From NCBI GenBank assembly GCA_000165345.1, contig CM000435.1:1184001-1248000 (forward strand): a stretch of DNA of 64,000 bases, read 5' to 3'. Shown here piece by piece: positions 15,162-64,000 of this stretch (its first letter is position 1; each line of letters starts with the position of its first letter). The notes below the pieces were generated by a model, which was not told the DNA's origin, made no database searches, and saw nothing but the letters and a program-made list of their open reading frames with translations. The position numbers and the translations under genes are program-made.

Positions 15162-15179
15162 TTGGCGCCATGGCGCCAC
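15162..15179. promoter_or_regulatory. Paired E2F-type box, perfect 14-bp palindrome GGCGCCATGGCGCC, upstream of the MPN/eIF3-like gene
   Basis: TTGGCGCCATGGCGCCAC lies 160 bp upstream of the ATG at 15005. A TATACCGGC element follows at 15201-15209. Confidence 0.6.
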
Positions 15180-36161: not shown

Positions 36162-36755
36162 TTATAAGACAATTTCCTCCTGATCGTCTTCCATATCCAT
36201 CATGCTAACATCTGTGTTACCACTAAATTTATCTATAAATGATTTTCTCTTTTCAACGATCTTATTCATTTTCTTCTCGCTCTTTTTAAGAGCTTTCTGG
36301 CGAGAAATATCACTCATTGTTGTTGTTTGTGCTAAAGGAATTTCAGGTCCCTTTAGTAATGTAGCATTTCTCTCAGTTTCCTTATCAACTAAAGTCCTCT
36401 GTGTCTGCTGCTGCTTCATTAATCTAGTCTTGTAGAATCTCTCCTTTCTTGATTCCTTAATCTTTTCCACCAATTTCATTGCCTTGATTGTCTTAATATA
36501 TAGCTCTCTGTCATATCTTATTGGGCAATTCCTCTTCTTTTCAAATTCAAATGTAGTATCCATAATCATTTCTTTTCCACGAGTCTTTCTATATGCCTTG
36601 GTCCATTTGGACTTTCTTGGGTTATGCTTCATCTTAAAATGTCTATGGCATTTACTTCTGCAAAACCTGAAAATTTTGGCATCATTTCTTACAAAAGTTA
36701 CACCGTGACCTGGATATATATTACTTGAACAGTACCAACACTTCTCAATACGCAT
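36162..36755 (-). CDS. RLP24: Ribosome biogenesis protein RLP24 (ribosomal L24e-like)
   Basis: MRIEKCWYCSSNIYPGHGVTFVRNDAKIFRFCRSKCHRHFKMKHNPRKSKWTKAYRK is near-identical in pattern to RLP24 [57 protein letters not shown]. Confidence 0.9.
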   Translation of the reverse strand: MRIEKCWYCSSNIYPGHGVTFVRNDAKIFRFCRSKCHRHFKMKHNPRKSKWTKAYRKTRGKEMIMDTTFEFEKKRNCPIRYDRELYIKTIKAMKLVEKIKESRKERFYKTRLMKQQQTQRTLVDKETERNATLLKGPEIPLAQTTTMSDISRQKALKKSEKKMNKIVEKRKSFIDKFSGNTDVSMMDMEDDQEEIVL

Positions 36756-37069
36756 ATTTTCTGTGCTCTTCTATTATACAGTCAAATGCTACTCTTGGGA
36801 CAACGCACTTCTTCTTTTATAAATGTATCAATCTTTTAGTTCAAAGTCTGACTTCAAGCTAACTTGTCTCTTAGAATGTTACTTTATATCAGACGTTTCA
36901 AATTCCTTAGATTACTTATAGCTCTACTCGAGATACTAGAACTACACCTGAATTGTTCCAAATACTTTTCCAGCCCTCTTTCTACTACTTTTATAGTTAT
37001 CCCCTTGTAACTTATGTTTTTTTATTCCCTCCTTTTTATTTATCTATTATTATTAGTCAAAAAATACAT

Positions 37070-37098
37070 GGCGCCAAAATGGGTCCACATGTGGCGCC
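37070..37098. promoter_or_regulatory. Paired GGCGCC boxes (GGCGCCAAAATGGGTCCACATGTGGCGCC) in a divergent promoter
   Basis: Between the RLP24 start (36755, -) and the Slt11-like start (37217, +). Confidence 0.6.
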
Positions 37099-37216
37099 AT
37101 TAGCAACAATATAATAATAAAGAAAATCTGAAAATTGATTAAAGTAATTACAGAAAGACCGGCAAGAGTTTGCCTTAATGCCCTTAAAGTAGGTTTAGAG
37201 AAGGGAGGTTTGAAGA

Positions 37217-37777
37217 ATGTCTCACGGTTTAAGTTATGAGGACTGCAATTTCCCCATTGTATGCGACAGATGCTTGGGTGAAAGCAAGTTTCTCAGAATG
37301 ACAAAATCAAACCAAGAAAGATCTTGCAAGATTTGCAATCGACCATGCACAATGTTTCGCTGGAAGCTTCACAATTCCAAAAAATACAATCAAACCACAA
37401 TATGTTATTCTTGTGGTAAAATCAAGAATGTATGCCAATCATGCGTAAGTGATTTAAACTTTGGATTATCATTATATGCCAGAGATGACTATATAAAGAG
37501 TAAAAAAGAACAAGGAGATGAAACTGCTCTTCAAATTATGAATATTCCGGATAGCGTAGATAACAGGGATCATTTCATGGAGAATAAATTGAATGGAAAT
37601 GATGAAACCTTTATTAAGAGAATTGATGAAAACCAGAAAAAGAGAAAGGAAATATTAAAAAAGATTTTGGCAAAGGATGACAAAATTGAAGCAAAAGAAG
37701 TGACCAATTATAGTAAGAATACCACAGAATGTGGCTCTAGTTCTAAAACTACAATCAAAAGTATTTCGAAAAATTGA
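37217..37777 (+). CDS. Slt11/Ecm2/RBM22-family zinc-finger splicing factor, short form lacking the RRM
   Basis: CDRCLGESKFLRMTKSNQERSCKICNRPCTMFRWK…TTICYSCGKIKNVCQSCVSDLNFGL matches the RBM22/Slt11 N-terminal Cys pattern (CxRC…CKIC.RPFT.F.W…C..C.K.KN.CQ.C..DL.FGL). Confidence 0.55.
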   Translation: MSHGLSYEDCNFPIVCDRCLGESKFLRMTKSNQERSCKICNRPCTMFRWKLHNSKKYNQTTICYSCGKIKNVCQSCVSDLNFGLSLYARDDYIKSKKEQGDETALQIMNIPDSVDNRDHFMENKLNGNDETFIKRIDENQKKRKEILKKILAKDDKIEAKEVTNYSKNTTECGSSSKTTIKSISKN

Positions 37778-40446: not shown

Positions 40447-42093
40447 TCAATTCCATGATAAAGACTGATTTCCAGAATTGATGTAACTTGGAATACTTGA
40501 ACAGGAAATGCTGAAAATAAAATTGTTAAACTCGTGGTTTAACTGATCAAACCTAATTTCAATACTTTTAATTTTATTGAAAGCATATTCTCTAGATTCG
40601 CTCATCAAATTTTTATTATCAATTACAGCTTCTCTAGATTTGATTCCATAGAGCTCAACAGACTGCCTAAGCTTTTCCATTCTTTCAATAAACTGAGCAT
40701 ATCCAGAATTAGAAATGACAGGCTGCAAGACTGAAATTTGGTCATTGTCTGTTACAACAAATTGATTTGCTACCTCTGATTTCTTGGCTTTTAAGCTTTG
40801 ACTATGTAAAATTAAAGCACTTTCCATGTACTGAATCTCTTCTAAAAGGGACTTATATGTAATCTCGTTTGCTGTTCCGTGTACAGTAAAGGATGCAGGT
40901 GAGGTCGCCATGAACATGTCCATAATACCAACAAGCTGGAGTTGTAATTCACTCATTTCTTGCTTAAGTAGTTGAATATCCTTATTTGTAGACTCTAAAC
41001 TACTTGGCTGTGGATAAAATTCTGAATCACTATCTTCAACAAAACTCTCCTCTGTAGGTGTTTTATTTGAACCTGAATTAAAGTCCCCATTAAAATACTT
41101 TACTTTTCCATCCTGATCAATCAAAACTTTTCCTTCGAGTATTTTGTCCTTATTTTTTGTGAGAAACTCCTTTAGATAATCCTTTCTCTCCTTTAATCTA
41201 TTGAGAAGGTATTTATAATCTGTAATACTACTCGAGTGTTTGACAAGTAAAGGACCATCTAAATTGGCATCTTCGGATTCATTCAATCCTAAAATTTGGT
41301 TTTCAACTCTATCAGCATTTTTATTCTTATTAATACCTTCATCATCACCAATTAATAATGATCTAATAGACCTGCAACCTTCTGGAAGTTCTAAATCTCT
41401 CAAAATGATGTTATTTAGCGCATAACATAAATTTTTGGAATCTTTAATTTTTTCAATTAAACTATTTGCTAAATACATATGGGAAAGAGGTTTCATATTC
41501 CACCTATCAGCATAAATAAAAAACATCATTACTGCAATATTGTTCCAATCTTCATCAATATCATAAACGCTTTTATCTTCAACAGGTGAAAACGAAAAGA
41601 TATTCCATACTTCCTTTTCTTCCTCTGCTTTATAAAACTTATCTTTATTTCTAAAAGTTGAAGGATTTACTACATCCAAGTAAACTGTTAAATTCTTCAT
41701 AACTTCATATATTGAGCTAGTTTTAGTATTTAAAGTTACTAATATTATTCCGGTACCAGATGATTGAACTGCATTCAGGTCTATTTTTGCTCTTGGGAAA
41801 TATCTTTCAATATCTGAGCTAACGCTAACACACCCGTCAAGTGCAGGATTGTCTGGATTAGTTACACAGTCAATAAATTCTCCGATACTATCCATCATCC
41901 AAACATTACAACTTACATCTTCAGGAAGCTTCCAGTTATCGTAATCATCATTATTGGCTTCTTCAGGAAAAATTTGTGATCTTTCAAATCTAACAATGAT
42001 AACTTCCCCTGCATATTTAGGTATTCCGAACCCTCCATGTGAACTATAATGCTTCAATCTCCCTGTTTCATTTTCTGTGATAAGCTCTGTCAT
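40447..42093 (-). CDS. Hypothetical protein with a C-terminal coiled coil
   Basis: 548-codon ORF with an ATG start. E2F pair about 460 bp upstream. Confidence 0.5.
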   Translation of the reverse strand: MTELITENETGRLKHYSSHGGFGIPKYAGEVIIVRFERSQIFPEEANNDDYDNWKLPEDVSCNVWMMDSIGEFIDCVTNPDNPALDGCVSVSSDIERYFPRAKIDLNAVQSSGTGIILVTLNTKTSSIYEVMKNLTVYLDVVNPSTFRNKDKFYKAEEEKEVWNIFSFSPVEDKSVYDIDEDWNNIAVMMFFIYADRWNMKPLSHMYLANSLIEKIKDSKNLCYALNNIILRDLELPEGCRSIRSLLIGDDEGINKNKNADRVENQILGLNESEDANLDGPLLVKHSSSITDYKYLLNRLKERKDYLKEFLTKNKDKILEGKVLIDQDGKVKYFNGDFNSGSNKTPTEESFVEDSDSEFYPQPSSLESTNKDIQLLKQEMSELQLQLVGIMDMFMATSPASFTVHGTANEITYKSLLEEIQYMESALILHSQSLKAKKSEVANQFVVTDNDQISVLQPVISNSGYAQFIERMEKLRQSVELYGIKSREAVIDNKNLMSESREYAFNKIKSIEIRFDQLNHEFNNFIFSISCSSIPSYINSGNQSLSWN

Positions 42094-42555
42094 TTTTTTT
42101 TAAAAGCTCTTTTATATTAATATTATTTAAAATATTTTCATTTAACTAGAGATCTTAATTCGCTTAGTTCATATAGCATGGTACTTTACGTTACGTATCT
42201 ACGTGTTATACCAATATTGTTCATAACTAACAGTTACCTGCAAAATAATCTTAATTAAAAGAAATTTAAATTGAAAATATTTAAGAAAAACAAATATTAT
42301 ATCTAAAATCACTTTTAAAAAGATAATAGTAAGTCGATATTCACTTTTATCGCAACCTAATACAAACATTAAACTCCACTTCAAAATGATAAGTTCTAAA
42401 AATGTAGGCTATATATATTAATGCTTTAAATTTCAAAAATCCTATGTAATATAGTTGAAAATCTGAATAGATTTGGATAAGATCTTTTATCAAAACTTGA
42501 ATCAATTTTTCAAATGCTTATTTTTGAACTGACTACAATAGTGCATGCAAGGCAG

Positions 42556-42584
42556 CGCCAAATCACACGAACGCTGTTGGCGCC
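42556..42584. promoter_or_regulatory. Paired E2F-type boxes (AGCGCCAAA … TTGGCGCC)
   Basis: In the 1-kb gap between 42093 (- start) and the small ORF at 42777. Confidence 0.5.
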
Positions 42585-42776
42585 TATTTGAAACAAATTT
42601 GTGTGGTTTTTGATATAAATGTAAGATGAAAAAGAAAATGTATTTTTTTTCATTTTTTTTCGCAAGTTAAGGTAGGATTATCTTTTGTAATATTTTTAAA
42701 TTACTTAGGTTGATAGAATGTTTCTCTTTTTTGTAACTTGACTAACTATTAGAGCATAAACTCTTTTAAAGTAGAA

Positions 42777-43001
42777 ATGTACAGAAATGAAATATTAAGT
42801 AATTTCTCCTCTAGATTGAGAATTATGTATCGCTACTACGAGAATAGATGGAATGAGCTTATATACAAACAAAATGATGATTTGGTAATGATTCTAAAAG
42901 AATATAACTTGAAAATAAAACGTGTAGCAAACAACCAAGGAAAAGGGATAGTTAAAAAAATAATGTTTTGTGAGCCTGATATAAAAAGGAATATAATTTA
43001 A
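42777..43001 (+). CDS. Possible small protein (74 aa). Very uncertain
   Basis: ATG ORF MYRNEILSNFSSRLRIMYRYYENRW… sits about 190 bp downstream of a paired E2F box (42556-42584) in an otherwise ORF-free 1-kb gap. No homology recognised. Confidence 0.2.
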   Translation: MYRNEILSNFSSRLRIMYRYYENRWNELIYKQNDDLVMILKEYNLKIKRVANNQGKGIVKKIMFCEPDIKRNII

Positions 43002-43147
43002 ATAAACTTGATTCTACAGAAAGAGCGTTTTCTATCATCAAGTACAATTTTCTAAAGTTGGGAAAAGCAATACATAATTTAAAATAACTTGGGTGTTGGA
43101 AATAAATAGTATTCAAGAATTGAATAAAAATAATCCAAAACCTTTAT

Positions 43148-43444
43148 TTAAGAATCTGAAATCTTTTGCCTCTTATATACTTGTTGGTCTTTCTCAAAGT
43201 TTTGAGTCAAATCTTCATATCCCTCTCCTACCATTCCAATACAATCGCCACGTAAAACAAGAGACTCCATACTTACAGTTTCTACTTTGTTCAGATCTTT
43301 ATTATATATCTTTTCAAAGCAATTTTGTAATACTATATTTGTTAGCTGATCGAACCCTACCAAATTCCCAACATATACTTTGTTATCAACTGTCAATACG
43401 CTCACAGTCTTGTTGATAAACTGTTCTAATGTAGAACTATTCAT
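43148..43444 (-). CDS. LSM8: Sm-like protein LSm8
   Basis: LEQFINKTVSVLTVDNKVYVGNLVGFDQLTNIVLQNCFEKIY…LVLRGDCIGMVGE aligns with human LSm8 LENYINRTVAVITSDGRMIVGTLKGFDQTINLILDESHERVF…IVRGDNVAVIGE. Confidence 0.8.
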   Translation of the reverse strand: MNSSTLEQFINKTVSVLTVDNKVYVGNLVGFDQLTNIVLQNCFEKIYNKDLNKVETVSMESLVLRGDCIGMVGEGYEDLTQNFEKDQQVYKRQKISDS

Positions 43445-44070
43445 CTGCTAATTCTAAAAGTTGGTAAAAAGTATGCAAATAATTAATAAGGACCAATATA
43501 AATATATATATTTATATAGATCAGTTTGCCAATGTATTTTGGAATCCTAATTTTTTTTAAACCTTGAAAGTAACTGGAATAATTGAAACAGTCAGTTCAA
43601 AAATAGAAAATCCTAAGGCATTGTCTAGCCACGTATTTAAGATGAATTCTTATTTAATATATTGTTAACAAATAAATTTCCTTGAAAAATAATTTTAAAA
43701 TAATTTTTCTGGTCTCATTCTACCGACATCAATGGACCCTCATCTTGATACCGGTTTTTGACTATGAGTGCATTTTGGCGGGCTTCGGGAATAATTTATT
43801 TATTAAGCTGATGAAAAAATTAGTATACAAATAATTTAGATTACTGTGAGTTTGAAAGAAAATTTTCGGTATTATTTGTTCTCACTGGAAAGAAGATACA
43901 ATCTCTTGAAGGTATAAAGTAAAAGTCCCTTATATTCGTATTAATAATAAGTGGCTCATAAAGCCATTAATAATAAATTTAAAAATACGAAATTTATGTG
44001 AGAATATAAGTAATAAACCTTTAAAGTGAGGGAGAAAGAGGTAGGAGTTTATCATATTGAGTACAAAACC

Positions 44071-46091: not shown

Positions 46092-47267
46092 CTATTCATT
46101 TCTGTTAATTTTAATAGAGGAAATAGTTTTATATACCTGTTCTTCATTACTTATGACTCCTATTTCTTGAATTCCAGATAATTCATTAAGCTGAATTTCA
46201 GAGATATATCCAGGACCAAAGCTTTTTTTTGAGTATGCTTTCACAAGACTACTAGAATTAAATGTTAATTTCTGTTTTTCACTTTTATTTCCGTATTTTG
46301 TATTGATAAAGGTTACATGTGGGTTATAATCCTGTACTATAGAATCTTTTAGATTTTGTGATTTGTTACTAATCTCTGAATTAGAATCAGATATTGTTAA
46401 ATTAACCCCATATTTTATCAGTATCTCACAAAGTTTAATCCAAAGTCGTTTAATCATTGCAATTTTATGATTTTCAGATATTTTTGCATATACAACTCTA
46501 GAATTATAAGGAGATCCAAAGTACCCTAATCCATGTAACTCCACAGGAAATCCCTTTTCAGAAGATGATTCTTCCAAAATGTCTCGAAACTCTTGAGTTT
46601 CTTTTAATTCGAATAATGCATTCTCACACTGTAAAAGTTCTTGAGGTGTTTCTGCTCGAACTAACCCCAAAGTTATGTGCAATTTCTTCTCACCAATAAA
46701 AAATGTCGGTTTAATTTCTCCGTACTCTGCAGATTCATTCACCACTTTTTTTAAAGCTTTGAATTCCTTGAATAGATTCAAAGAGTGCTGATTAAATGAT
46801 AAACTGAAAAAGTGTGTTGGAGTTTGATTTACTTTGATATTTTGATCTTTTTCCTCCAAATAATCCACAAATTCCAAATGATCAAAATTTGAGCCAAGCT
46901 TAGTAGCTTCTTCAGATTCTTCGCTTTCAGAATTTGAGAAATTACTATCTTCCTTAATAACTTGCACTTCGCTTGTAGGCTTAAATGAAAGTCTTTTCAA
47001 CAAACTTGCTGGAATCTGACTCAAGTCCACATACTCACTCACCATCCTCCCCCTTTCTTTATCCCCTGACCTCTGAAAGATGTTGTCTCGTATTTCAACA
47101 GCTTTTACTGGCGGGAATAAAATCATCTCATCTAACTTTTCGATTTCATTTGAATGAAAATGACTACCCTGGGGGGAATTATGATCATTATAAGATCCCT
47201 CTGCTCCCGTAACTCCGCTTTCTTCGTTCAGTTGTTTTTTAGATTCCTTAATTTTTTTTGAAGCCAT
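46092..47267 (-). CDS. 2H-phosphoesterase-fold protein (ASCC1/AKAP7/LigT-like)
   Basis: Two H-x-T/S-x motifs at the right spacing: KKLHITLGLV and NPHVTFINTKYG. Confidence 0.45.
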   Translation of the reverse strand: MASKKIKESKKQLNEESGVTGAEGSYNDHNSPQGSHFHSNEIEKLDEMILFPPVKAVEIRDNIFQRSGDKERGRMVSEYVDLSQIPASLLKRLSFKPTSEVQVIKEDSNFSNSESEESEEATKLGSNFDHLEFVDYLEEKDQNIKVNQTPTHFFSLSFNQHSLNLFKEFKALKKVVNESAEYGEIKPTFFIGEKKLHITLGLVRAETPQELLQCENALFELKETQEFRDILEESSSEKGFPVELHGLGYFGSPYNSRVVYAKISENHKIAMIKRLWIKLCEILIKYGVNLTISDSNSEISNKSQNLKDSIVQDYNPHVTFINTKYGNKSEKQKLTFNSSSLVKAYSKKSFGPGYISEIQLNELSGIQEIGVISNEEQVYKTISSIKINRNE

Positions 47268-47340
47268 AAATCATTCTAATCGGTACCGTTAATTTCCTCA
47301 ATTTACTTTTACTACTTTAAGCACTGCAAGCAAACAGAGA

Positions 47341-47358
47341 GCGCCAACTAATGGCGCC
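47341..47358. promoter_or_regulatory. Paired E2F-type boxes (GCGCCAACTAATGGCGCC) in a divergent promoter
   Basis: Between the 2H-phosphoesterase start (47267, -) and the CtIP-like start (47623, +). CGGTACCG at 47281-47288. Confidence 0.55.
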
Positions 47359-47622
47359 GTTTGTCGATCTAATTTACAGCCAAAATTATTTAAAGGGGTG
47401 GGCTTAATAATATTCTGAATTTACTTAAGAATAGAAACGGGTATAATTTGACTTGGAAAATAGCAAGAGGTTGCAGATGTTTTATATTTTTTGTGTGAGC
47501 ATTTTCATTCGGAAAATACACTCGTATTAAGTAAATAGTATTAATATATCGATCGCATGCTGGTAGTTACCAGGAGCTAAACAGTAAAATAAAAATAAGA
47601 TAATACTTGTTTTAATGAAACC

Positions 47623-48423
47623 ATGGATCAAATCATTGACGATGATGAGTACAATTCAATTTTCCCACTTGAGAAAATTGCTTCTCATTTGAATATTTCC
47701 TTAAAATTCCTAGAAAATGCTCAAATTCAGTGGATGAATGAAAAAGAATCACTCCTTCGTGAAATTGAGAGACTAAGAATGGAAAATAGAACTCTAAGAA
47801 TGGAAGTTAGAAGTAGTGAAAATATTGAAAGGAATTCTGTCTCAAATACTCCAAATAACAACAGAATTAAAAGTTATTATTTAATAAACAATGACTCTGG
47901 TCAGATTATTCCTATCCCTCCAAATCCAGTAAATCAAGTAGTTGGAAGAAGCTGCAGTAGTTCAAACAATATTAAAAGAGTAAACGATGTTCTTGAGATT
48001 CAAAATATTACCGAAAGAAATTCGAATGCTATTCCAAATAGAAATTCGATTTCTGCATCGAGAAGCATCCAAAATGATCAGATTTCTCCAGCTACAAGTT
48101 CACAAAACTGTCGAGTGAGACATATACAACTTGAAGACGAAAATAGCGACCATGAACCATTAGAGGAAAAGAAAAAAGCTATTAAGTATAGAGAAGTTGG
48201 AAAAAGTATTGGCAAAAAAGAACAAAGAAAGAATCTTGAAGCATTCGAGTGTACCGAGTGTTCTAAGTTTTACAAAGCTATTAATAATAATAGAACATCA
48301 AATAGCCAATCAATGTGTAAGCATCTAAAGCAAAGCCTTCTTCTTCAGAATTCAGGAAGGCATAGGTTCAAACATCCTCCAACTAAATCTCCCCCAGGGT
48401 ATTGGGATTTGGATGAAATTTGA
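47623..48423 (+). CDS. CtIP/Sae2/Ctp1-like DNA end-resection factor (short form)
   Basis: N-terminal coiled coil (LLREIERLRMENRTLRMEV). C-terminal Sae2/CtIP signature FECTECSKFY…GRHRFKHPPTKSPPGYWDLDEI, matching the CtIP C-terminus C.ECSKFY…GRHRY.PP.TPE.FW…F. Confidence 0.55.
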   Translation: MDQIIDDDEYNSIFPLEKIASHLNISLKFLENAQIQWMNEKESLLREIERLRMENRTLRMEVRSSENIERNSVSNTPNNNRIKSYYLINNDSGQIIPIPPNPVNQVVGRSCSSSNNIKRVNDVLEIQNITERNSNAIPNRNSISASRSIQNDQISPATSSQNCRVRHIQLEDENSDHEPLEEKKKAIKYREVGKSIGKKEQRKNLEAFECTECSKFYKAINNNRTSNSQSMCKHLKQSLLLQNSGRHRFKHPPTKSPPGYWDLDEI

Positions 48424-48514: not shown

Positions 48515-50411
48515 TTATCCGGCATTAGTAAACGGTAAATCTTTTCCATTAGGTATTAAGTTAGAACCAGAATCGGGATCAGCTTGCAGTACAAAAACGG
48601 CCCAATCTCTTAAGATGTGGTTTATTTCTTTCAAGAAGGGTGACTTACATTGTAAAGGAGTACAATTTGTAGAATGCACCGCTACAACGAGAGAGCATGC
48701 TGGCTCTTTAAAAAATTGTGCCTTTTTCTCCACGTACTGGAGAAGTGGAGCAGTTGTAGCTTGATTATTACCTATAAGTTGCCCAAGATTTCCAGAAATA
48801 ATTATTTCTTCTTCTGTTTCTTTACCAAATACATTACCATAGTTTCCCATATATACCCCCGATAAAGGACCAAATTCCAATTCTTTTTCTAAACCAGGCT
48901 CAAACATTTGGGTCGCTAATGTTCCTCCGAATGCCATTTCTTGGAGTCTTCTAAGCATTATATTGTTGTTATTACCGATATCATCCCATTTCCTTTTACC
49001 CACTCCAATCTCAGATTCATCATCTTTTAATCCTTTGGAATCTCCACAAATTCCTTTATCTTTGATACAATTCTTTGAACTGTTTTCAAATTCGTTAGTT
49101 AAAAACTCAACATTATTTTCCATATCAATTCCCATACCTCTCATTTGAACAGCTTGGATGTCTGCTTGACTTTTCTTCACATAACGAGAAGAGGAAGTGA
49201 ACAAATTGTTTGAAATAGTGTCTTGACCTCTTGAACTAGTGTCATTAAAGTTGATTGGAAACTCTTGATCATTCTTATTTTCAGAAATTTCGTTTAAAGT
49301 TTCAAAGATATCTTCAACTACTTCATCTGACACCACATCATTCTCATCAAATGTTCCAGAAATAATTTTGTATGTCTCATCTTCAGGAATTTCTTCTCCA
49401 AACTCATATTTTTCGAGTGCTTTAGGAGGAAAAATAACGTTGAAGCCCTTTGGACACCAAATTCTGCCTCTTGTATAATTAACAATATTACAAATCATAG
49501 TTACTCTTTGATAAAAAGCAAAGTTTGAGCCAATATATGAAGGTTGGGAATTATCTGGACAAATTGCTATTGGTGGAATAACCTGAAATGCTTTGCATCC
49601 TTCAATTGAATTAACAAATCCTGCTGGACAAATTCCTCCATCCAATTCCTATAAAAAAAAAATTCAAATGAATTATCATCAATAATTTTATCTCCTTAAA
49701 CTTACAGAAAATGGAATAACACGATACCCTTCGCATGCCCATGATATAATATCTGGAGTAACTTCTCCTGTATTTGAATTAGTTTCTGATTCGTACTTAA
49801 GTCTAAGTTTCATTCCTGCTGGACATGCTAAAGAAGGTCCTACTTCTCTTTTTTCCTGGCAAATTCCTATTTTTAATAAATAAAAAATATATTATATTTA
49901 ATATAAGTAAATTTATTACTGTAAGCCAAAAAGAATATTTTGCAAAATTACCTGGATATAAAGATGACTGTTTAGGAATAGTGCCTGACGCTGAGCTAAC
50001 AAATCTTCCCAGATCACCAAAACACTCTGTTCTTGGTCCCAAAGAAACCTCAGCCATACAAAGTGGCCCCCAAGGAGTCCAGCCTTTTGGGCATCTGACC
50101 TGAACAGGTCTAATTAATTCAGGTACCCTATTATCTACTCCTTTTTCTTGCTTTCTAGTTAAAATGGGTTCAAATTCAGGTTTTTTTTCCGTCAATTTAT
50201 GAAGCTCAAGAATCTCCGTAATATTTGCATCATATCTGGGAAACTTGTCTTTCCAAGGAAGGGGCTTGTAATCTGACTTTAATTTTTGAGGTCCATACAT
50301 TTCAGCTGGGTTTGTAGATCCTGAAAAGTCATGCCTTTCTTGTGCCACATTTCTTTGCGATAATACATATCTAAAACATAAAACAAGCAGTAATAATATC
50401 AAAAAATTCAT
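48515..50411 (-). CDS. Secreted cysteine-rich (COWP-like) protein, spliced; the middle exon is not resolved
   Basis: The track ORFs 49803..50411 and 48515..49645 belong to one gene. The first has an ATG and a signal peptide MNFLILLLLVLCFRYVLS. The second starts at a TTG artefact. Exon 1 ends at 49952: CCAG followed by GTAATT at plus 49946-49951. A perfect 57-nt intron (GTAAGT…TTTTTTTTTATAG, 49648..49704) joins …PFS to ELDGGICPAGFVNSIEGC. Between them the 49705..49866 segment has stops in all frames as one exon. The best model uses acceptor CTTAG at 49803, giving exon 49705..49802 (DLKYESETNSNTGEVTPDIISWACEGYRVIPFS). Motifs RCPKGWTPWGPLC, ICPAGF…C and WCPKGF. Confidence 0.45.
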
Positions 50412-53744: not shown

Positions 53745-55316
53745 TCAAGTAGGAACAAATCCAACTAAGTTTACTATTTTTAATTTATTACTTGAATCAA
53801 ATGATGCATTTAGGCAAATATTTCCCTGAATAAAACGAACATATAATAATAAATTATCGATAGTGAAATTAGGGTTAGAACATTCAGAAGATCCTTCATT
53901 GTTTTCAATAGACAGTATTCTCTCAGCTACTTGCCTGGTTAAACATACATCCTCCAATAGTAATTCATCCCACGGCTTTGGTAAAGGTATTGGATAATGA
54001 ATACCTAGTTCAAGGAGCATTTCATCACTATTTACACTCCTTCTAGAGTTAATTACAACAGCTTCAACCCAAATGACTAATTCATCTTCATTTTGTGGGT
54101 GATCAATTTCATTTAAACTTTCAGAATTAGTTTGTAATACTGATGGAGCTTCCGATAAATTAAATTCATGATTATTATTTATATCAGGATAATAGCTATT
54201 TAAACCCTCGAAATTTTCATCTTGATATTCTAAATCCTCTCTAATTTCAATATCAGCATAATTTTCAAAGTCAAAATAACCTTGTAAATCGTCTACAATA
54301 CCGACATCCAATATTTCATTTTCCTTTTCTTCAATGGACTTAGGAAAAATCTCAATAACTGAATTAGAATCAGAATTAGAGTTATCTGGTTCTATAAAGC
54401 ATTCATCTTTGATTTCTAATTTCTCTAATAATAACTCGTCTTCAATCAAAGAGTTGCTTAAAAAAGAATCTGAATTAACTTGATTCAGTGCTTTTTGGTT
54501 TGAAATAACTTTATAGTTCTCTTCAAATATCTGATTATCTTTTTTTTCCTTTAAGCCTGAATTTGTAATCACAAAGTTTGAGTATGACCTGATATCTAAG
54601 ATCCCCTCTGGGGTTTTAATTGGTTTCTTAACTAAGTTTTCTGACAAAATAGAGGAGCTGGAATTGCTTGTAGACTTTTCTCCTATGTTTTCATTGAGCT
54701 TTTTAACTCGATCATGAACACTTTGTTCAGCATCTTTATGCATGATAAAAGTAAGCATTCCAGGTAATAAAAGCATGACTCCTCTTTTGATTTCAGGCTC
54801 ACCTGACAAAAGAACCAATATATGGGCGTTGTTATCTCGCTGATTTGAATCTCCATTCTTTTCAATATGTTCTGTATATTTGCACCAAAAGCTTATGAAT
54901 TCATCTAATTCAGGCATGTACCTATATTCCATTGCAGAGCATACATTTGTGCCATCTGTTAAAATGAGTTTCATCATCCTATTCTTAGAAGGAGTAGTTA
55001 TTGATACTTGCTCCATCTTAGATAAATCTGAGTTAAAATAGAATCGATTTCTAGACTTAGCCTTGGAAACATCCTCAGCCTCTATTAATTGCAATAAATG
55101 AACTCCTTTTAAGTTAATTTTATGCAAAGAATGAATATCCAAAGGTAGACTTCCTTTCTTAATAATTTTTGATAGGTCCACTGAAAGCAAAAGTTTTAAA
55201 AGTTTGTCAGAATAATCATCATAATCCTCTTTAAATGGTTCTAATAGCTTTTCAACCTCCTCACAAACTTGAATTTGCAAATCCTTCAAAATGTGTTCAA
55301 TCAAATTTTCACTCAT
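53745..55316 (-). CDS. RMI1/TDRD3-like DUF1767 + OB-fold protein
   Basis: NRMMKLILTDGTNVCSAMEYRYMPELDEF…KRGVMLLLPG aligns with human RMI1 [31 protein letters not shown]…LGVLLLKP. The track start 55328 is TTG; the first ATG is at 55316 (MSENLIEHIL). Confidence 0.45.
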   Translation of the reverse strand: MSENLIEHILKDLQIQVCEEVEKLLEPFKEDYDDYSDKLLKLLLSVDLSKIIKKGSLPLDIHSLHKINLKGVHLLQLIEAEDVSKAKSRNRFYFNSDLSKMEQVSITTPSKNRMMKLILTDGTNVCSAMEYRYMPELDEFISFWCKYTEHIEKNGDSNQRDNNAHILVLLSGEPEIKRGVMLLLPGMLTFIMHKDAEQSVHDRVKKLNENIGEKSTSNSSSSILSENLVKKPIKTPEGILDIRSYSNFVITNSGLKEKKDNQIFEENYKVISNQKALNQVNSDSFLSNSLIEDELLLEKLEIKDECFIEPDNSNSDSNSVIEIFPKSIEEKENEILDVGIVDDLQGYFDFENYADIEIREDLEYQDENFEGLNSYYPDINNNHEFNLSEAPSVLQTNSESLNEIDHPQNEDELVIWVEAVVINSRRSVNSDEMLLELGIHYPIPLPKPWDELLLEDVCLTRQVAERILSIENNEGSSECSNPNFTIDNLLLYVRFIQGNICLNASFDSSNKLKIVNLVGFVPT

Positions 55317-57266: not shown

Positions 57267-57879
57267 TATATTTGAGCTAAATCTAGACAACTATTGATTC
57301 ATGTGACACAAATGTGAATAGTTATTATTCTCAACAGGGATTAATCTTTCTAGCTCCCCTATTTCTTAAATTACTATTCTATTTAGGCTACACACTAAAT
57401 ATATTATTTCATATTTAAAATCAAACAAGCCAAACTGAATTGAAAAGTCATTTAGTTTCGTAGTCAAAGTAATTTTTTTAATTAAATAGACAAATCTTTA
57501 GGGTGATAGCTTAGAGAAACTTGTGACATAACTCCCCTTATATCTTGCTTTGGACTTGTTTAATTTTACTTGGAGGCGGAGATAGGCTCATTCTTCAGAA
57601 AAATGGCGCGCGCTTGAAAATGTTTTTTTTTGTGTTGTATTGATTAAAATACTTTTTGTTATATATAATAATTAAAAAAATAGAGGAGTTTAAAAACCAC
57701 AACATAGATAAATTTAATAGATTTAGAGAAACAAAAGTAGCTAATCAACTCATAATTGATGTGTCTAAGGTTGAAAACAAAGGCAAAAAATCCGCAGAAT
57801 TAACACTGAAGAATTTATGACAAAAATTAATTAATTTAGGTGGGAAAAGAAAATAGTGGCAGGAGCCTTAAGATCAAAG

Positions 57880-60800
57880 ATGGATAGAGACAGATGGATT
57901 GGATTACTGAGAAATTGTAACAGATCCCTGCTTTCATTCCAAGTATATGCAAACCACCAGTATACAGAAAAGGGGAGTACCCAAGAAATAGAAAATCTGG
58001 TTCTGAAAGATATTCCTCTAGTTGTTCGTGAGAGGATTGAGAGTTATACAAAAAAAAGTATTATTCCTCAGAATATTTCTCCTGAGAGTCAAATATTTTC
58101 AGAAAAGGATGTAATTAAGACAATTTCAAATTGCTTTCAAGTAGAATCAGAAGAAGCCTGTCGAATTTTTAGAGGCTTTAACTATTTAAGAGAAGGCGGT
58201 TTCATTATAAGATTTACAAATACAGACGACCAATTTTTATCAAAAGAGATCATAAATAGAAACGGGAATGATCCTGAAGGTAAATATAGTAATGCTGGAA
58301 CAAACTCTGGAGGAGTTTTGGATTGTTTTTTTTCAGATGTGGACTTAATAAGCAAAATATACGATTTCATATTACAAGAACAGCTTTCTCTACTAGACTC
58401 AGTGAAATTCATGTATGAAAATGCAAATTTTGAAAAGGAACATTCAGGCTATGGAGCAGTTTTAAAGAAGGTTTGTTTTGGAGAAGTCCTCTGGGGAAAA
58501 GACCAAGATCAATCAACAAAAGAAGGGATTGGAAAACATTCTTCCTCATTTAATATACTAGATGAGCTTTGGAGATGGTATTCTAGGTTAGTTAATGACC
58601 AGTTTGTTGATTTTGACAATCCAGAATTGGAAAGAGTTTTTGGAGGTCCTCTATTACAAGCATATTCTAGACAACTACTCGAGTCTAATCTGTTACACAC
58701 TATTTTGGTGGTTCTCCAAGCTCATAAAGGGTATATGGGTAGTTTAACTGGTATTCAAAAGAAACCAGAAACTGAAGTGAGCTCTAACAATAATAATAAT
58801 AGAATCCCTATTGGGGAATCTCTTTCAAGGTCTTCACCTCTTAACAGATGTAGACTCATCATTTCTGAACTCCAGTCAAAATGCTTCCTTGGTAGTCTTT
58901 ATACTTTATATTCCTCCAACAGTGGAATTGGCATAGGACCACTCACGTTTTGCGATAGCAGCTTGGCTCACTCCACATCTATGATAGATCAACTCAGACA
59001 AACTGCCTCCAATGGAGTACTTTTGGCTAGCTCTCTAATACTTTCATTCTCTCCAAAAGAGATTACAATTAATAATGAAGATTTGGGCTTTTTAATCAAC
59101 GTTATAGTAACTTTATTACAGTCAATATGCTCGAATGACTCAGGAGAGGTTTTGTGTGATATCCAACAAGAAAAGTATAACTTTTCTACTCCTGCGAGAG
59201 CTAAAGCTGATACATTTAGTAGAAATGCTCAGAAACAACTATTTATAAGAGGTAACTTACTTTTGGTTCATGCTAAGGTTGTAAAACCCTTATTACCTGC
59301 TCTAATATTCAGCTATGCCTCCATAGTTGTACAAACTCCAAATAGAGATTCACTTTTGGCTCCTATTCTTGAAGCTCCGTCATTCTTTCAATCCTCTGCA
59401 TTTTCTGATTCTTTGGAAAGTATACTTCATGCTCTCAGTTCTCAACATCCTCTTAAACAATATATTTCAGTTTCATTACTTTCAAGCTGCGGATTGGAAA
59501 ACAAGACAACTCAAAACAAAACTTTAGATTTGGATGATGCTTACTTTTCAGAAGATTTTAATAGTGACAATAAGAAAAATATCATTCTGGGAGAAGCCTT
59601 TGGAACATATTACCAGCATTTGGTTCTTTATAGTATAATTAGAAATACAGTTTCAACATTTTCACTCAACTCCTTACCTTTAGTTGCAAGAATTTCGAAA
59701 CATCTAAGTTTCTTACTCAGAAAAGAGCCTAGACTGGTTTATAGAGAATGTTGGAGAGGGGACTATTTCAGACAAATTGGAGTCCATTTAATCATTGAAT
59801 TATTCATGTCATCATTTCCATACGGAATTGTTGAGTTTCTTGATCTCTTAAACAGTCTTGTTCCTGACTTTAATTCAATTTCAAAATTCAATCAAGCTGA
59901 CATCGATATGGCCAAGCAATCATTCAAACTTTTTATGACTTTTTTGAGAACTCCAATTAGAAATATTTCCTTTCCTCCATACCTTTCCTCTCTTGGGTTA
60001 TCTCCTATTCCTGTTAATAATTGGAATCCGGATTCAATAAAAAATGATTCTGAATTCCCTGAGCTTCCTCTACATTTACAAGTATCACGCTTAGAGACAC
60101 CAGATTTGGCTCTTGGAGCATCCTTTTCTCAGGCATCCTTGGCAGGAACGCTTGAAGGATGCTTGTTGGACTTTTTAGAAATCAAACTCAACGATGTAAC
60201 TCCGCTCTCTGCTGGATTTCCGAATGCAAGAAAATGTCTCACACCACTTAGAGTACTTCCTATTGGAGTTGCTCAGTCAGTTCCTTTAAAGTCGCTTTTA
60301 ATCGAAAACTCAGAAACTAGTTTTTCTTCACCTCTTTGGTCAAATTCTCCCTATGGAACTTCTTATGACTTTCCTGAAGTTGAAATGCCACCATATTACC
60401 ACATTTACAATTCTAGAAGCAAGTTAGAAGAAAGCAAAAAGGTAAGAAGTTCCGATCTTCTTGATATTAATAAGCTTAGACTTCCTTCTGAACTTAATAA
60501 TAACTCAACAGAAATTAGGCTTGGAGATTTGGACCCTTTCACAATAAAATTCTGTTGTAAAAATATTCAAAATCCTGATTCTTTGCCATCGCTTCTCAAA
60601 ATTTTGTTGTTGATCTGGGAATCTATTGGCCTTTCATTGTCACAGTTTGGCGGAAACTTGATAAAACAACATATTGAAATGCTGGTTTCACTTAGCGAAC
60701 TTATATATAGACTTGCATCATTCCACCCTTCAATTATATTTGTTCTTGATCAGGAAATCTTCTCATGGAATGCACTAATTCCGAATGCTACCCAACAAGG

Positions 60801-63800
60801 ATTAAAAGCTTCCACTAGATTTGGGCTTTTACCAATCAAAACTATACAAATGCTGAAGGGAATTTGCTATCTAATTAACAACAAGAATAATGGAGAGGAG
60901 GCTGTATCAGTTACTTTCCAAACTATTCCTAGACTCATTAATCTTCTTCAAGTATCCCTCCAACCTATTGATTTACTTTCAATCGATGACGCAGCTAATG
61001 GGAACTTTTTAAAGCTTCAAATTGGTTCTAAAGAGTTTAATAGAGAAAATAAACAAGTAAACAAGCAATCAAAGTTATTTAGCTTTCAATTCCCGTGGAG
61101 CCACCAATCTCACAATATACCAATGTACTGGCTTGTTCCTCTGTTGGTTTCATGTCTTGGTTCGAAAACTCTTGTGGATCCGGCTACACAAAGAGATTCA
61201 GGTTTTTATTCTCCAGTGCTTAAAGGAATACAGGGATTCAACTTGGATGAGCTTTTTAACCTTGTATCAAAATCTCTAGAAATTGTCGAAAAGCAGCTGA
61301 AGTCATATCCAATTACTGCTCAAATTCTTGAATTTATTGTTACTTTACTTAACTTTTGTCCTGCTTCATTTTGGGGTCTTGGATGGGACAGACATGCAAG
61401 ACTTCTGCTTTCAACTTTGGAAGAATTTAGCTATAGTTCATCTACAACAAATAAGATTATTAGAGATATTCAGTTTCTAATTAATGACTGCATATTATGT
61501 CAACAATGCTCTGAAGAGTTGGAGCAGAGAGATTTATTTGGATTTTTTGGTAGGATCTCCAACTTCTCAATTCATACCGTTCTTTCTAGAATTTCAAGCT
61601 GGCAATTCAATTTGGAGTCAGAAAGGAACTTATTGTTTCTACGCTCACTTTCAGTGTTTGGATTACTATTAAACTCAATGGACTCTGCTACAATAATAAA
61701 ATCTGACGAAGATTATGAACAACAATTAAATGAAAACATGATAAAGTCTGAAGTTAAAGATAGCAACTCTTATAGCCTAAAAGATATTGTTCCCAGTATT
61801 TCAGGAATTGCATCGTCTAATCATCGTGCTATTATAGCTACTCTTTTAAAACACATCACTGAAACTGGCTTGATACCTTCATTACTTACAATACTGTCTT
61901 GTGAATACAGCATTCACTCCCAGTCATTTAGAAGGTCGCGGTATTCGCAGTTAGCAAAAGATGAATTGAATGATATTCCTGCTCCTTGGGAATTACTTAT
62001 TTCAAACTCTGTAGTTGCCCAGGCAATGGAAAAGAATGAATCTCTTTCCTTTACTCTCGCTCTCCATCTTCAACATTCAAACTCTCAAGTTATGTTTTTA
62101 GATAAACTCCTTGTTCCTACGTTCGAATGCAGTAATACTCTTCCTAACAGAAGCGGGGAATTATTCTCTTCTCCAGATGTTATCGTTGCTCAACAGGTTG
62201 TTACTGAAGTTCTCAAGGTAATTCAAAAATTGCTCAACTCCGTTGCCGATCTTCAAACTAGTTCAGATATGCTTTGCTCTCTAAGAACGGCTTTAGTTCA
62301 ATGGATTTTATCTTCTTCATCAAATCAAGGCTCTCATATTTCAAATAGTCTGCTGAATTCCCCAAAGTTTAGTTGGTCAGATACTGACATTATCGCAAAT
62401 CATATACATTCAAGAATATCACTGCTTTATCTTTCTAAGAAGCCAGTAATGAATTTAGTAAAGTCTTTATTTTCACTCATGCTTAGCTTTGTACCTTCAT
62501 CTATGGCCTCAAATACTCCAATTGTTGCAGCAAAGCTTCTCTCTTCATTCTGTTATATACTTTCATCAGAATCTTCCGTAAACAACTATGAGCAAAGCCA
62601 AGTACAAAACTCCAGATTGGACATAATTCTTGAGCAAATTCTAAAGCCATCTACATCTCTCGGCTCAATACAGCAAGATTTCTTACTTTCACTAACAAAT
62701 ACTAAACTATTTCCATTGCTGATCAAACTTCTATACCAAGAGCTTGACTTTGTACTTTTAGCCCCGATTTTCAGCTTCTTAAAGACCTTTGACTTTTCTG
62801 AAACTAAAATAAATAGCCAGGACAAAACCCCAATTGAATTTTGTAAAGTGGTTTTGGAACTCATTAACTTATTTTCTGCATCCCATCCTTCAATGCTTAT
62901 TGGATCAACTAAAAGCTTTTCTTTTGAAAGGCTAGATTATGTTTTAGCTCACTGTAAATCTAATCTCACTATTTGCTCTGGTAATCAGATTAATGGGTCT
63001 CCTTCATCCTCTTTTAGTAGAATCGGATTAATTTGCCATGCTATAGTTGGAATCCTTGAGAAATGTAATTCACTACTAACATGTATCAACAAGGCTAATC
63101 TAGTAATCTCCTCAAATCTGCTCAATATTTTACATCTAATTCCTCTTTCATTAAGTATATTGAACCAACTTTTTGAAAATACAAGATCAAAGGATTTCTT
63201 GATCAGGGAAATGTTTATTAAAACAAAAGATAAAGATGGCAGTCCATCAGCCACTTCAACATGGAATATTGTCATTTCAGTTACACAAAATCTAACTTCT
63301 CTTTGGAGTTGTCTTCAACTTGATTCCAATATCTCTCAAGCCAAGTTGCAATTGTTAACTATAATATCTTCATCTGTTGCATGTACATATCATTTAACAT
63401 CCAGGTTTATCAGTGTATCTACTCATCTGAGCTTTAAAAACTATGACAAACTTCCAGTTTTCCTAAGAGAACGAAAAATATTTGATTTTGTCAAGTACCT
63501 TGTTTCAGACAAAACTATAAATGAAATTCTTCACTCCTCCAAGAGCTCCAAGCTTATTTTTGGTTTATTCCTTAGATCCAATAGCCATTTTTCAGAAGTT
63601 GAAGATAAACTAGGAGTGCCAATTAAATATTGTGTATTCAGTAGAAAAAACTATGATTCCAGTAATGATTCAGAATTGGCTAAAACTCAAAGCTCATACA
63701 CAGATAATTCCTTGGAACAATTTGTTAACAAATATTACTTTGAAAGATACCTCAAATTCTCTCATTTGATCATTTCAAATGAGACAATTAACAATCTCAC

Positions 63801-64000
63801 AGAATTTAATATATCAAAGATTTGTGAGTTTAGAGATGAAAGTACTAAAGATTTGAGATCAAGTTCCTTTGATCCCAGCAGCCAAACCTTCAAGCTTCCT
63901 CCTTCCAGCAATAGTGAAACTTCTCAGCTTGCTACACTTGAAATGGTATGGGAATCTGGACAGCTTTTAGCTCCAAAACAACACTTTTCTCCAAACAATA
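57880..64000 (+). CDS. Giant (>2,030 aa) predicted alpha-helical protein, 3'-truncated by the window edge
   Basis: From ATG 57880 (MDRDRWIGLLRNC…; an in-frame TAA lies at 57832) the frame stays open to position 64000. Absent from the ORF track because no stop lies inside the window. Leu-rich helical-repeat character. No specific family recognised. Confidence 0.55.
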   Translation, partial: MDRDRWIGLLRNCNRSLLSFQVYANHQYTEKGSTQEIENLVLKDIPLVVRERIESYTKKSIIPQNISPESQIFSEKDVIKTISNCFQVESEEACRIFRGFNYLREGGFIIRFTNTDDQFLSKEIINRNGNDPEGKYSNAGTNSGGVLDCFFSDVDLISKIYDFILQEQLSLLDSVKFMYENANFEKEHSGYGAVLKKVCFGEVLWGKDQDQSTKEGIGKHSSSFNILDELWRWYSRLVNDQFVDFDNPELERVFGGPLLQAYSRQLLESNLLHTILVVLQAHKGYMGSLTGIQKKPETEVSSNNNNNRIPIGESLSRSSPLNRCRLIISELQSKCFLGSLYTLYSSNSGIGIGPLTFCDSSLAHSTSMIDQLRQTASNGVLLASSLILSFSPKEITINNEDLGFLINVIVTLLQSICSNDSGEVLCDIQQEKYNFSTPARAKADTFSRNAQKQLFIRGNLLLVHAKVVKPLLPALIFSYASIVVQTPNRDSLLAPILEAPSFFQSSAFSDSLESILHALSSQHPLKQYISVSLLSSCGLENKTTQNKTLDLDDAYFSEDFNSDNKKNIILGEAFGTYYQHLVLYSIIRNTVSTFSLNSLPLVARISKHLSFLLRKEPRLVYRECWRGDYFRQIGVHLIIELFMSSFPYGIVEFLDLLNSLVPDFNSISKFNQADIDMAKQSFKLFMTFLRTPIRNISFPPYLSSLGLSPIPVNNWNPDSIKNDSEFPELPLHLQVSRLETPDLALGASFSQASLAGTLEGCLLDFLEIKLNDVTPLSAGFPNARKCLTPLRVLPIGVAQSVPLKSLLIENSETSFSSPLWSNSPYGTSYDFPEVEMPPYYHIYNSRSKLEESKKVRSSDLLDINKLRLPSELNNNSTEIRLGDLDPFTIKFCCKNIQNPDSLPSLLKILLLIWESIGLSLSQFGGNLIKQHIEMLVSLSELIYRLASFHPSIIFVLDQEIFSWNALIPNATQQGLKASTRFGLLPIKTIQMLKGICYLINNKNNGEEAVSVTFQTIPRLINLLQVSLQPIDLLSIDDAANGNFLKLQIGSKEFNRENKQVNKQSKLFSFQFPWSHQSHNIPMYWLVPLLVSCLGSKTLVDPATQRDSGFYSPVLKGIQGFNLDELFNLVSKSLEIVEKQLKSYPITAQILEFIVTLLNFCPASFWGLGWDRHARLLLSTLEEFSYSSSTTNKIIRDIQFLINDCILCQQCSEELEQRDLFGFFGRISNFSIHTVLSRISSWQFNLESERNLLFLRSLSVFGLLLNSMDSATIIKSDEDYEQQLNENMIKSEVKDSNSYSLKDIVPSISGIASSNHRAIIATLLKHITETGLIPSLLTILSCEYSIHSQSFRRSRYSQLAKDELNDIPAPWELLISNSVVAQAMEKNESLSFTLALHLQHSNSQVMFLDKLLVPTFECSNTLPNRSGELFSSPDVIVAQQVVTEVLKVIQKLLNSVADLQTSSDMLCSLRTALVQWILSSSSNQGSHISNSLLNSPKFSWSDTDIIANHIHSRISLLYLSKKPVMNLVKSLFSLMLSFVPSSMASNTPIVAAKLLSSFCYILSSESSVNNYEQSQVQNSRLDIILEQILKPSTSLGSIQQDFLLSLTNTKLFPLLIKLLYQELDFVLLAPIFSFLKTFDFSETKINSQDKTPIEFCKVVLELINLFSASHPSMLIGSTKSFSFERLDYVLAHCKSNLTICSGNQINGSPSSSFSRIGLICHAIVGILEKCNSLLTCINKANLVISSNLLNILHLIPLSLSILNQLFENTRSKDFLIREMFIKTKDKDGSPSATSTWNIVISVTQNLTSLWSCLQLDSNISQAKLQLLTIISSSVACTYHLTSRFISVSTHLSFKNYDKLPVFLRERKIFDFVKYLVSDKTINEILHSSKSSKLIFGLFLRSNSHFSEVEDKLGVPIKYCVFSRKNYDSSNDSELAKTQSSYTDNSLEQFVNKYYFERYLKFSHLIISNETINNLTEFNISKICEFRDESTKDLRSSSFDPSSQTFKLPPSSNSETSQLATLEMVWESGQLLAPKQHFSPNN

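Follow-up and report, generated by a model that had tools for sequence, protein, structure and literature searches.

The window analyzed here is a 64,000-nucleotide (64-kb) stretch of Cryptosporidium parvum DNA (contig CM000435.1 of GenBank assembly GCA_000165345.1, positions 1,184,001 to 1,248,000 of the forward strand) with a G + C content of 31.7%. It contains a single-exon gene of the CtIP/Ctp1 family (47623..48423, plus strand), which appears in the list of open reading frames (ORFs) of the window as an uninterrupted ATG-to-TGA frame of 266 codons with no in-frame stop, and which diverges from a 2H phosphoesterase gene across a shared intergenic region. The translation terminates in ...EAFECTECSKFYKAINNNRTSNSQSMCKHLKQSLLLQNSGRHRFKHPPTKSPPGYWDLDEI; both the ORF and this C-terminal sequence agree with an earlier reading of the bare DNA (hereafter, the original prediction) that had named the gene a compact CtIP/Sae2/Ctp1 homologue. 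In an exact-sequence look-up, the 266-amino acid (aa) protein was 100% identical to XP_628681.1 / EAK90492.1 / UniProt Q5CXP9 of C. parvum Iowa II, whose deposited product name is 'CtIP type zinc knuckle (C2H2)'. Orthologues carry product names such as 'DNA repair protein endonuclease SAE2/CtIP C-terminus family protein' and 'DNA endonuclease activator Ctp1 C-terminal domain-containing protein'. The family identification of the C. parvum gene is already public under these CtIP names and is not new, the annotation is unaffected, and the practical consequences are modest. No mention of the product name, accessions or locus tags of the Cryptosporidium protein was found in the searchable literature, nor were expression or phenotype results for the gene.

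The Pfam SAE2 profile (PF08573, 'DNA endonuclease activator SAE2/CtIP C-terminus') matched aa 188-264 with 28.2 bits versus a gathering score of 19.8 (E = 4.1e-6). The match spans profile positions 39-104 of 110, and the domain stops 2 residues short of the stop codon. The C. andersoni orthologue scored 32 bits against the same profile, and a precomputed PF08573 match was present in all nine Cryptosporidium orthologues of one orthologue set. A reciprocal profile was built from the C-terminal 84 residues (aa 183-266) of nine Cryptosporidium orthologues and scored against 1.84 billion representative proteins with a threshold of E <= 1e-3. It matched 245 proteins, mostly at or near their own C-termini, and 40 of its 41 best non-query matches were members of PF08573. 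The full string CxxC...[RK]H[RK]...P..[ST]P..[FYW]W occurred in 120 proteins among the matches listed. The distant members yield the consensus KYxEVVRKKxERxxLxAxxCxxCxKFYxA...CxH...SRHRYxxxPPxTPPGFWD, which the C. parvum C-terminus tracks at each alignment column. Among the named matches are plant 'gamma response 1' (COM1/GR1) entries and others called 'Ctp1 C-terminal domain-containing protein'. They also take in apicomplexan proteins from Selenidium serpulae (301 aa) and Rhytidocystis pertsovi (1253 aa) and a protein of the chromerid Vitrella brassicaformis (549 aa). A named-database search with a 20-sequence C-terminal profile returned short proteins only, the named ones chiefly plant GR1 fragments, and reconfirmed the family but was uninformative for apicomplexans. 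The Pfam score above cutoff and the reciprocal search together bear out the homology that the original prediction had proposed.

Within the C-terminal domain, the residues that distinguish the family are in place. Both CxxC and RHR, by which the C-rich-H subgroup is recognized, occur in the C. parvum protein; in the 20-sequence family alignment, the histidine of RHR is invariant and each flanking arginine is at least 90% conserved. Just past RHR lies an S/T-P site followed by [FY]W, which at the level of sequence places the protein with the family. Serine 256 and proline 257 fall on the family T-P in an ungapped alignment to SRHRYxxxPPxTPPGFWD, and human CtIP T847 and yeast Sae2 S267 are the positional equivalents at this candidate cyclin-dependent kinase (CDK) site (bioRxiv 10.1101/2023.08.05.552090). 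The motif announced by the original prediction was found as such, with a corrected spacing: the C. parvum protein reads RHR-x3-PP-x2-SP-x2-YW instead of continuing with PP-x-[TS]P. Upstream of CxxC, the intestinal clade carries a 3-residue insertion (EVGKSIGKK versus EVVRKK).

The opposite end of the protein is a helix. A full-length AlphaFold2 model, made with a 9-sequence alignment, had a mean predicted local distance difference test (pLDDT) score of 50.6 and contained a single long helix at aa 16-71, in which the mean pLDDT of 10-residue blocks was 88-96 over residues 21-60. This helix is the sole reliable part of the model, the remainder being mostly below pLDDT 50. When L23 is set as a heptad d position, the d positions are L16, L23, L30, W37, L44, L51 and L58, amounting to seven Leu/Trp heptads, and the a positions are A20, L27, Q34, K41, I48, N55 and V62. 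The zipper residues L16, L23, L27, W37, L44, L51, N55 and L58 do not vary within the genus. The modelled helix is very likely an N-terminal coiled coil, and the leucine-zipper-like N-terminus suggested by the original prediction is upheld by the heptads together with the predicted helix. Between the two ends, the protein has the disordered middle typical of the family, with pLDDT < 50 for most of aa 73-198, indels and low conservation.

Orthologues were found in C. tyzzeri, C. hominis, chipmunk genotype I, C. ubiquitum, C. canis, C. felis, C. ryanae, C. xiaoi, C. andersoni, C. muris and C. serpentis. Alignment across the genus, with an overall identity of ~40% at its lowest, revealed three invariant blocks: the N-terminal helix (P15...R59), a central motif described below, and C-terminal residues comprising C210, C213, C232, H234, H247, R248, P253, K255-S256-P257-P258-G259 and W261-D262. 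CxxC, C-x-H, [RK]HR and KSPPG[YF]WD are invariant in 12 of 12 Cryptosporidium orthologues, including the gastric clade (~40% identity), so the Ser/Thr-Pro site and RHR (as [RK]HR), whose conservation had been put forward as a check on the identification, are both kept throughout. The ratio of nonsynonymous to synonymous substitution rates (dN/dS) versus C. ubiquitum was 0.096 for the whole protein, an approximate value, as are those that follow, because dS in this comparison is ~1 and near saturation. By part, dN/dS was 0.02 for the helix (aa 12-72), 0.31 for the linker (aa 73-152), 0.035 for the central motif (aa 153-172) and 0.08 for the C-terminal domain. The comparison with C. felis was unusable for this purpose, synonymous sites being saturated (pS >= 0.8). 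The gene is under purifying selection across the genus.

These data also bear on the idea that an unrelated coiled-coil protein ends in a short tail, rich in Cys/His and Pro, which resembles the SAE2 domain by chance, or that no real gene is present. The Pfam E-value of 4.1e-6 is moderate, only ~77 residues are covered, and for the remainder of the protein no homologue was detected beyond Cryptosporidium. Set against this, the score exceeds the curated cutoff, 40 of 41 reciprocal matches are SAE2 proteins, the consensus is followed column by column, the ORF and its synteny are kept in four other species, and dN/dS is ~0.1. The reciprocal profile search, the column alignment and dN/dS effectively refute a chance match, to which we assign a negligible probability. 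A pseudogene or chance ORF is ruled out by conserved synteny and purifying selection.

Searched for with several patterns, the central motif, SP..SQ.C[RK]VR.IQ, was recovered from 15-16 of 16 Cryptosporidium sequences according to the pattern, and from none of ~230 other fetched proteins. It holds a minimal candidate CDK site (SP), a candidate SQ site of the phosphatidylinositol 3-kinase-related kinase (PIKK) type and a short basic/hydrophobic stretch, and is specific to the genus. The constraint on the motif equals that on the SAE2 domain, although no other family member has a counterpart, and the depositors chose the name 'zinc knuckle'; both points would fit a protein that kept the domain and was repurposed as a zinc-knuckle/coiled-coil transcription or chromatin cofactor, in the manner of mammalian CtIP with CtBP and Rb, and that interacts mainly through the central motif. 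Such a change of role would make it hard to explain why all residue classes tied to Mre11-Rad50 activation (CxxC, RHR, S-P and [YF]W-D) are invariant. In addition, the Pfam scan found no DNA-binding or transcription-factor domain; PLDLS and LxCxE motifs were not searched for. We consider repurposing very improbable. The coordinates of the gene, its parts and the adjacent features are collected in Table 1.

Table 1. Features of the C. parvum CtIP/Ctp1-family gene and its upstream region (coordinates within the 64-kb window)
Feature	Position	Strand	Basis or conservation
CtIP/Ctp1-family gene, single-exon coding sequence, 266 aa + stop	47623..48423	+	ORF list, exact-sequence look-up, Pfam SAE2, dN/dS 0.096 versus C. 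ubiquitum
Leucine-zipper-like N-terminal helix, aa 16-71, presumed homo-oligomerisation coiled coil	47668..47835	+	AlphaFold2, heptads, genus conservation, dN/dS
Variable linker, aa 72-154, predicted disordered	47836..48084	+	Mostly pLDDT < 50, indels, poor conservation, dN/dS 0.31
Central motif, aa 155-169, S155-P156..S160-Q161-x-C163-[RK]-V165-R166-x-I168-Q169	48085..48129	+	Invariant in genus alignment, dN/dS 0.035
SAE2/CtIP C-terminal domain, aa 188-264 (PF08573 envelope)	48184..48414	+	Pfam, profile search, column-wise alignment
CxxC motif, C210-T-E-C213	48250..48261	+	Invariant in genus; both Cys invariant in 20-sequence family alignment
C232-K-H234, with CxxC the putative Cys/His cluster of the C-rich-H domain	48316-48324	+	Role from PMC4551917 and bioRxiv 10.1101/2023.08.05.552090
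RHR motif, R246-H247-R248	48358..48366	+	[RK]HR genus-wide
S256-P257-P258-G259-Y260-W261, candidate CDK phospho-site loop	48388..48405	+	Invariant K-S-P-P-G-[YF]-W-D in genus; aligns to family TPPGFWD
AKAP7/LigT-type 2H phosphoesterase, 391 aa, divergent neighbour	46092..47267	-	Pfam PF10469, PF02834
Shared intergenic (bidirectional promoter) region, 355 bp	47268..47622		Divergent gene pair
E2F/DP-like site pair	47340..47359		AGCGCCAA at 47340-47347 (reverse complement TTGGCGCT); TGGCGCCG at 47352-47359
G-box-like GGGGTGGG	47395-47402		Shared intergenic region
TGTGTGAG block, recognisable in four species	47492-47499		Intergenic alignment
GCATGC, ApiAP2-like core; C. parvum GCATGC, C. ubiquitum ACATGC	47555-47560		Intergenic alignment

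The divergent neighbour is a 2H phosphoesterase with strong Pfam support (AKAP7_NLS, PF10469, 109.7 bits, E = 2.3e-31; LigT_PEase, PF02834, 26.2 bits) and with the two HxT motifs of that superfamily in its translation (LHITLG and PHVTFI). The protein is identical to a C. parvum Iowa II entry, and its deposited names include 'LigT, 2 H domain protein' and 'Cyclic phosphodiesterase'. It also gave a very weak KH-like match (E = 0.08, 13.4 bits versus a cutoff of 34.2). It may resemble eukaryotic ASCC1-type proteins, which have been connected with the processing of RNA and of alkylation damage. The divergent arrangement of the two genes is shared by C. ubiquitum, C. felis, C. ryanae and C. andersoni.

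The intergenic region between the two genes was searched with the C. parvum E2F/DP motif TGGCGCCA, of core [CG]GCGC[CG]. The site TGGCGCCG has the full E2F-like core, and AGCGCCAA is a half-site, TTGGCGC, on the minus strand. The divergent paired-E2F promoter of the original prediction is thereby recovered as a putative and partly conserved pair; alignment places a pair at this position in C. ubiquitum and C. felis too (three of five species, counting C. parvum). Since no upstream motif is more abundant in C. parvum than the E2F-like one (PMC3734150), its occurrence here is little specific; of 200 expression clusters, 163 (2,379 genes) have it over-represented upstream of their genes, and these clusters peak at all time points (PMC3734150). 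Compared with the E2F-like pair, the GGGGTGGG, TGTGTGAG and GCATGC blocks lie nearer to the start codon of the CtIP gene, and an AP2_1-like motif, BGCATGCAH, is listed for C. parvum (PMC3734150). Across the window, GGCGCC was observed 14 times versus 0.68 expected (~20-fold excess), nearly all in intergenic positions and often paired. Pairs 8-25 bp apart lie at 15164/15172, 25925/25939, 34231/34244, 37070/37093, 42555/42579 and 47341/47353, several of them between divergent genes, such as the ribosomal L24e / STL11-like genes at 36162-37777.

Other features of the window were recorded as follows. A 523-aa ORF at 53745-55316 (minus strand) contains an RMI1 N-terminal OB-fold (PF08585, 31.3 bits versus a cutoff of 23, E = 2e-7). 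RMI1 is a partner of the Sgs1/BLM-Top3 complex, which makes this a second recombination-related gene, ~5.3 kb from the CtIP gene; BLM/Sgs1 is listed as not detected in a Toxoplasma review (PMC4853372). Downstream of the CtIP gene and convergent with it, a gene at 48515-49645 (minus strand; 327-376 aa) had no Pfam match, and the next small ORF lies at 49803-50411 (minus strand; 202 aa). The counterparts of these two are two genes in C. ryanae and C. andersoni, one 584-aa product in C. ubiquitum and a 412-aa model in C. felis; because the gene models differ between species, an intron or a mis-merge is possible at 48515-50411. An ORF of at least 2055 codons at 57835-63999 (plus strand) runs past the right end of the window and had no Pfam match at E <= 1e-5. 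Between the gene at 40447-42093 (minus strand) and that at 44071 (plus strand), ~2 kb (42094-44070) contain no ATG-initiated ORF >= 120 aa; this gap is unusually long for a compact genome and contains the E2F-like pair 42555/42579. A tRNA scan of the 64-kb window found none.

Among known members of the family, S. pombe Ctp1 matches the protein in layout. The two are of similarly small size (in Ctp1 the motifs are at aa 226-229 and 273-275, and D291 is near its C-terminus; PMC4551917), and each has a disordered middle, CxxC and RHR in its C-terminal part and, near the C-terminus, a conserved tail. The very likely coiled coil at the N-terminus of the C. parvum protein has its counterpart in Ctp1. 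They differ in that no sequence similarity was detected beyond the C-terminal domain and in that Cryptosporidium has the intestinal-clade insertion upstream of CxxC and the genus-specific central motif. Human CtIP (RBBP8) likewise has the C-rich-H module, an S/T-P directly past RHR, and PF08573, and its T847, with which S256 aligns, contacts Rad50 R79 in a published model (bioRxiv 10.1101/2023.08.05.552090). However, human CtIP has more than 900 residues (bioRxiv 10.1101/2023.08.05.552090), its CDK site is a threonine where Cryptosporidium has a serine, and the Cryptosporidium protein ends 5 residues past the tryptophan, so that the T859-bearing segment is absent. At 266 aa the C. parvum protein is small but unexceptional, since the family spans <200 to >900 aa (bioRxiv 10.1101/2023.08.05.552090).

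S. cerevisiae Sae2 belongs to the same Pfam family and shares a serine at the CDK position (S267) and, by analogy, the proposed role of phospho-dependent activator of the Mre11-Rad50 endonuclease. In contrast to the Cryptosporidium protein, it has no CxxC...RHR C-rich-H module, and its C-terminal domain is of a beta-strand/helix kind (bioRxiv 10.1101/2023.08.05.552090). For this reason, cross-complementation of sae2-delta is not assured, and S. pombe ctp1-delta would be the better host. The C-terminal domain can be aligned throughout plant COM1/GR1 and the Selenidium, Rhytidocystis and Vitrella proteins, which differ in having longer CxxC-RHR inserts, T-P rather than S-P, and no Cryptosporidium central motif. 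By its motifs, the Cryptosporidium protein classifies as CtIP/Ctp1 type. Its architecture is that of the family: an N-terminal helix that is very likely a coiled coil, a fast-evolving disordered linker, and an extreme C-terminal C-rich-H module followed by S-P and [YF]W.

Taken as a whole, these features are best explained, with high probability, by orthology of the C. parvum gene to CtIP/Ctp1 (Com1/Sae2 family). By analogy with the yeast and human proteins, its product is likely a cofactor of Mre11-Rad50 in end resection and regulated by CDK. In S. pombe, aa 5-60 of Ctp1 form a tetrameric coiled coil and the rest is largely disordered (PMC4551917). The Cys/His-constrained C-rich-H module CxxC...RHR, present in most eukaryotes and not in S. 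cerevisiae, is predicted to touch Mre11 (bioRxiv 10.1101/2023.08.05.552090). When phosphorylated by CDK, Sae2 S267 or CtIP T847 contacts Rad50 R77/R79 and Mre11 and stabilises the nuclease-active state (bioRxiv 10.1101/2023.08.05.552090). Spo11, Mre11, Rad50, Rad51 and Dmc1 are reported in Cryptosporidium (PMC2488364 Table 2), and classical non-homologous end joining (NHEJ) has been lost (PMC6635534). Because classical end joining is absent, resection-dependent repair is probably the main route of double-strand-break repair in Cryptosporidium.

On the model of the yeast and human homologues, the protein is hypothesized to act as follows. The bidirectional promoter with its two E2F/DP-like sites may drive expression, and the N-terminal helix would oligomerise the protein. 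Phosphorylation of S256 by a cyclin-dependent kinase would then move Mre11-Rad50 to its endonuclease-active state, and the activated nuclease would clip protein-blocked or Spo11-bound 5' ends. From this clipping, resection for homologous recombination would start, in the replicating stages as well as in meiosis. It could also be that a true CtIP-family protein acts in meiosis alone, as its name Com1 suggests, stripping programmed breaks of Spo11 in the zygote/oocyst and having no asexual role; mutations of CxxC and RHR in S. pombe abolish Rec12(Spo11)-oligonucleotide clipping, for which these motifs are specifically needed (PMC4551917), and Spo11 and Dmc1 are present in Cryptosporidium (PMC2488364). 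However, without classical NHEJ the replicating stages should need resection too, and the promoter region carries a general E2F-like motif of clusters that peak at all time points (PMC3734150). We regard a purely meiotic function as unlikely. A phospho-regulated cofactor in both mitotic and meiotic repair is best supported, because the activation residues are conserved, the partners are reported and NHEJ has been lost.

Several observations weigh against assignment as a resection cofactor of the CtIP/Ctp1 type. The CtIP_N profile (PF10482), which the original prediction had named along with SAE2 as a check, gave no match on the C. parvum protein in the Pfam scan even at E <= 10, so that of the two profiles only SAE2 was recovered. 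Neither the single protein nor the 9-sequence profile had a significant sequence match to solved CtIP/Ctp1 structures, these searches returning just weak coiled-coil look-alikes (BQLF2, APC) and integrin noise. The C-terminal domain is modelled by AlphaFold2 with low confidence (pLDDT about 40-50). Unlike S. pombe Ctp1, the C. parvum protein contains no convincing CK2-type SxT cluster, the module that binds the Nbs1 FHA domain: the sole SxT, S74-N75-T76, is without acidic context, the gastric clade (C. andersoni, C. muris and C. serpentis) has a deletion that covers the S74 region, and the sole S/T-x-x-[DE] site is S175. As for the promoter, among the five species compared, aligned E2F-like sites number one in C. 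andersoni and none in C. ryanae, and the pair lies 74-92 bp from the ATG of the 2H gene versus 264-283 bp from that of the CtIP gene, i.e. nearer the neighbour.

Because there was no CtIP_N match and no CtIP/Ctp1 structure was matched, detectable homology outside the genus is confined to the C-terminal domain, and the N-terminal coiled coil resembles the family by architecture only. The protein is a family member, yet one without the vertebrate CtIP architecture.

The central motif perhaps compensates for the missing Ctp1-like SxT/Nbs1 module, a suggestion we offer as speculation; Nbs1 is reported missing from T. gondii (PMC4853372, PMC12712053). In its extended form, the idea would be that the motif is a lineage-specific, phospho-regulated docking site that recruits this minimal CtIP to Mre11-Rad50 or to breaks, replacing the Nbs1-FHA/SxT route of Ctp1 and CtIP. 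We consider this doubtful, and put it forward tentatively. If it were true, the protein would be essential to this parasite, which has no end joining, as a structurally divergent point at which break repair is controlled; it would matter for genetics based on clustered regularly interspaced short palindromic repeats (CRISPR) and possibly as a drug target.

For T. gondii, the repair literature gives CtIP as undetected or missing (PMC4853372; PMC12712053, December 2025). The Selenidium, Rhytidocystis and Vitrella proteins resemble the C. parvum protein in the C-terminal domain only. Because they carry this domain, Cryptosporidium has retained an ancestral eukaryotic gene. A canonical and strongly constrained CtIP/Ctp1 can be followed throughout Cryptosporidium, and also in Selenidium, Rhytidocystis and Vitrella. 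Being compact, the C. parvum protein can serve as the reference sequence when Toxoplasma and Plasmodium are searched again for their 'missing' CtIP, and its gene is of interest in an organism dependent on homology-directed repair.

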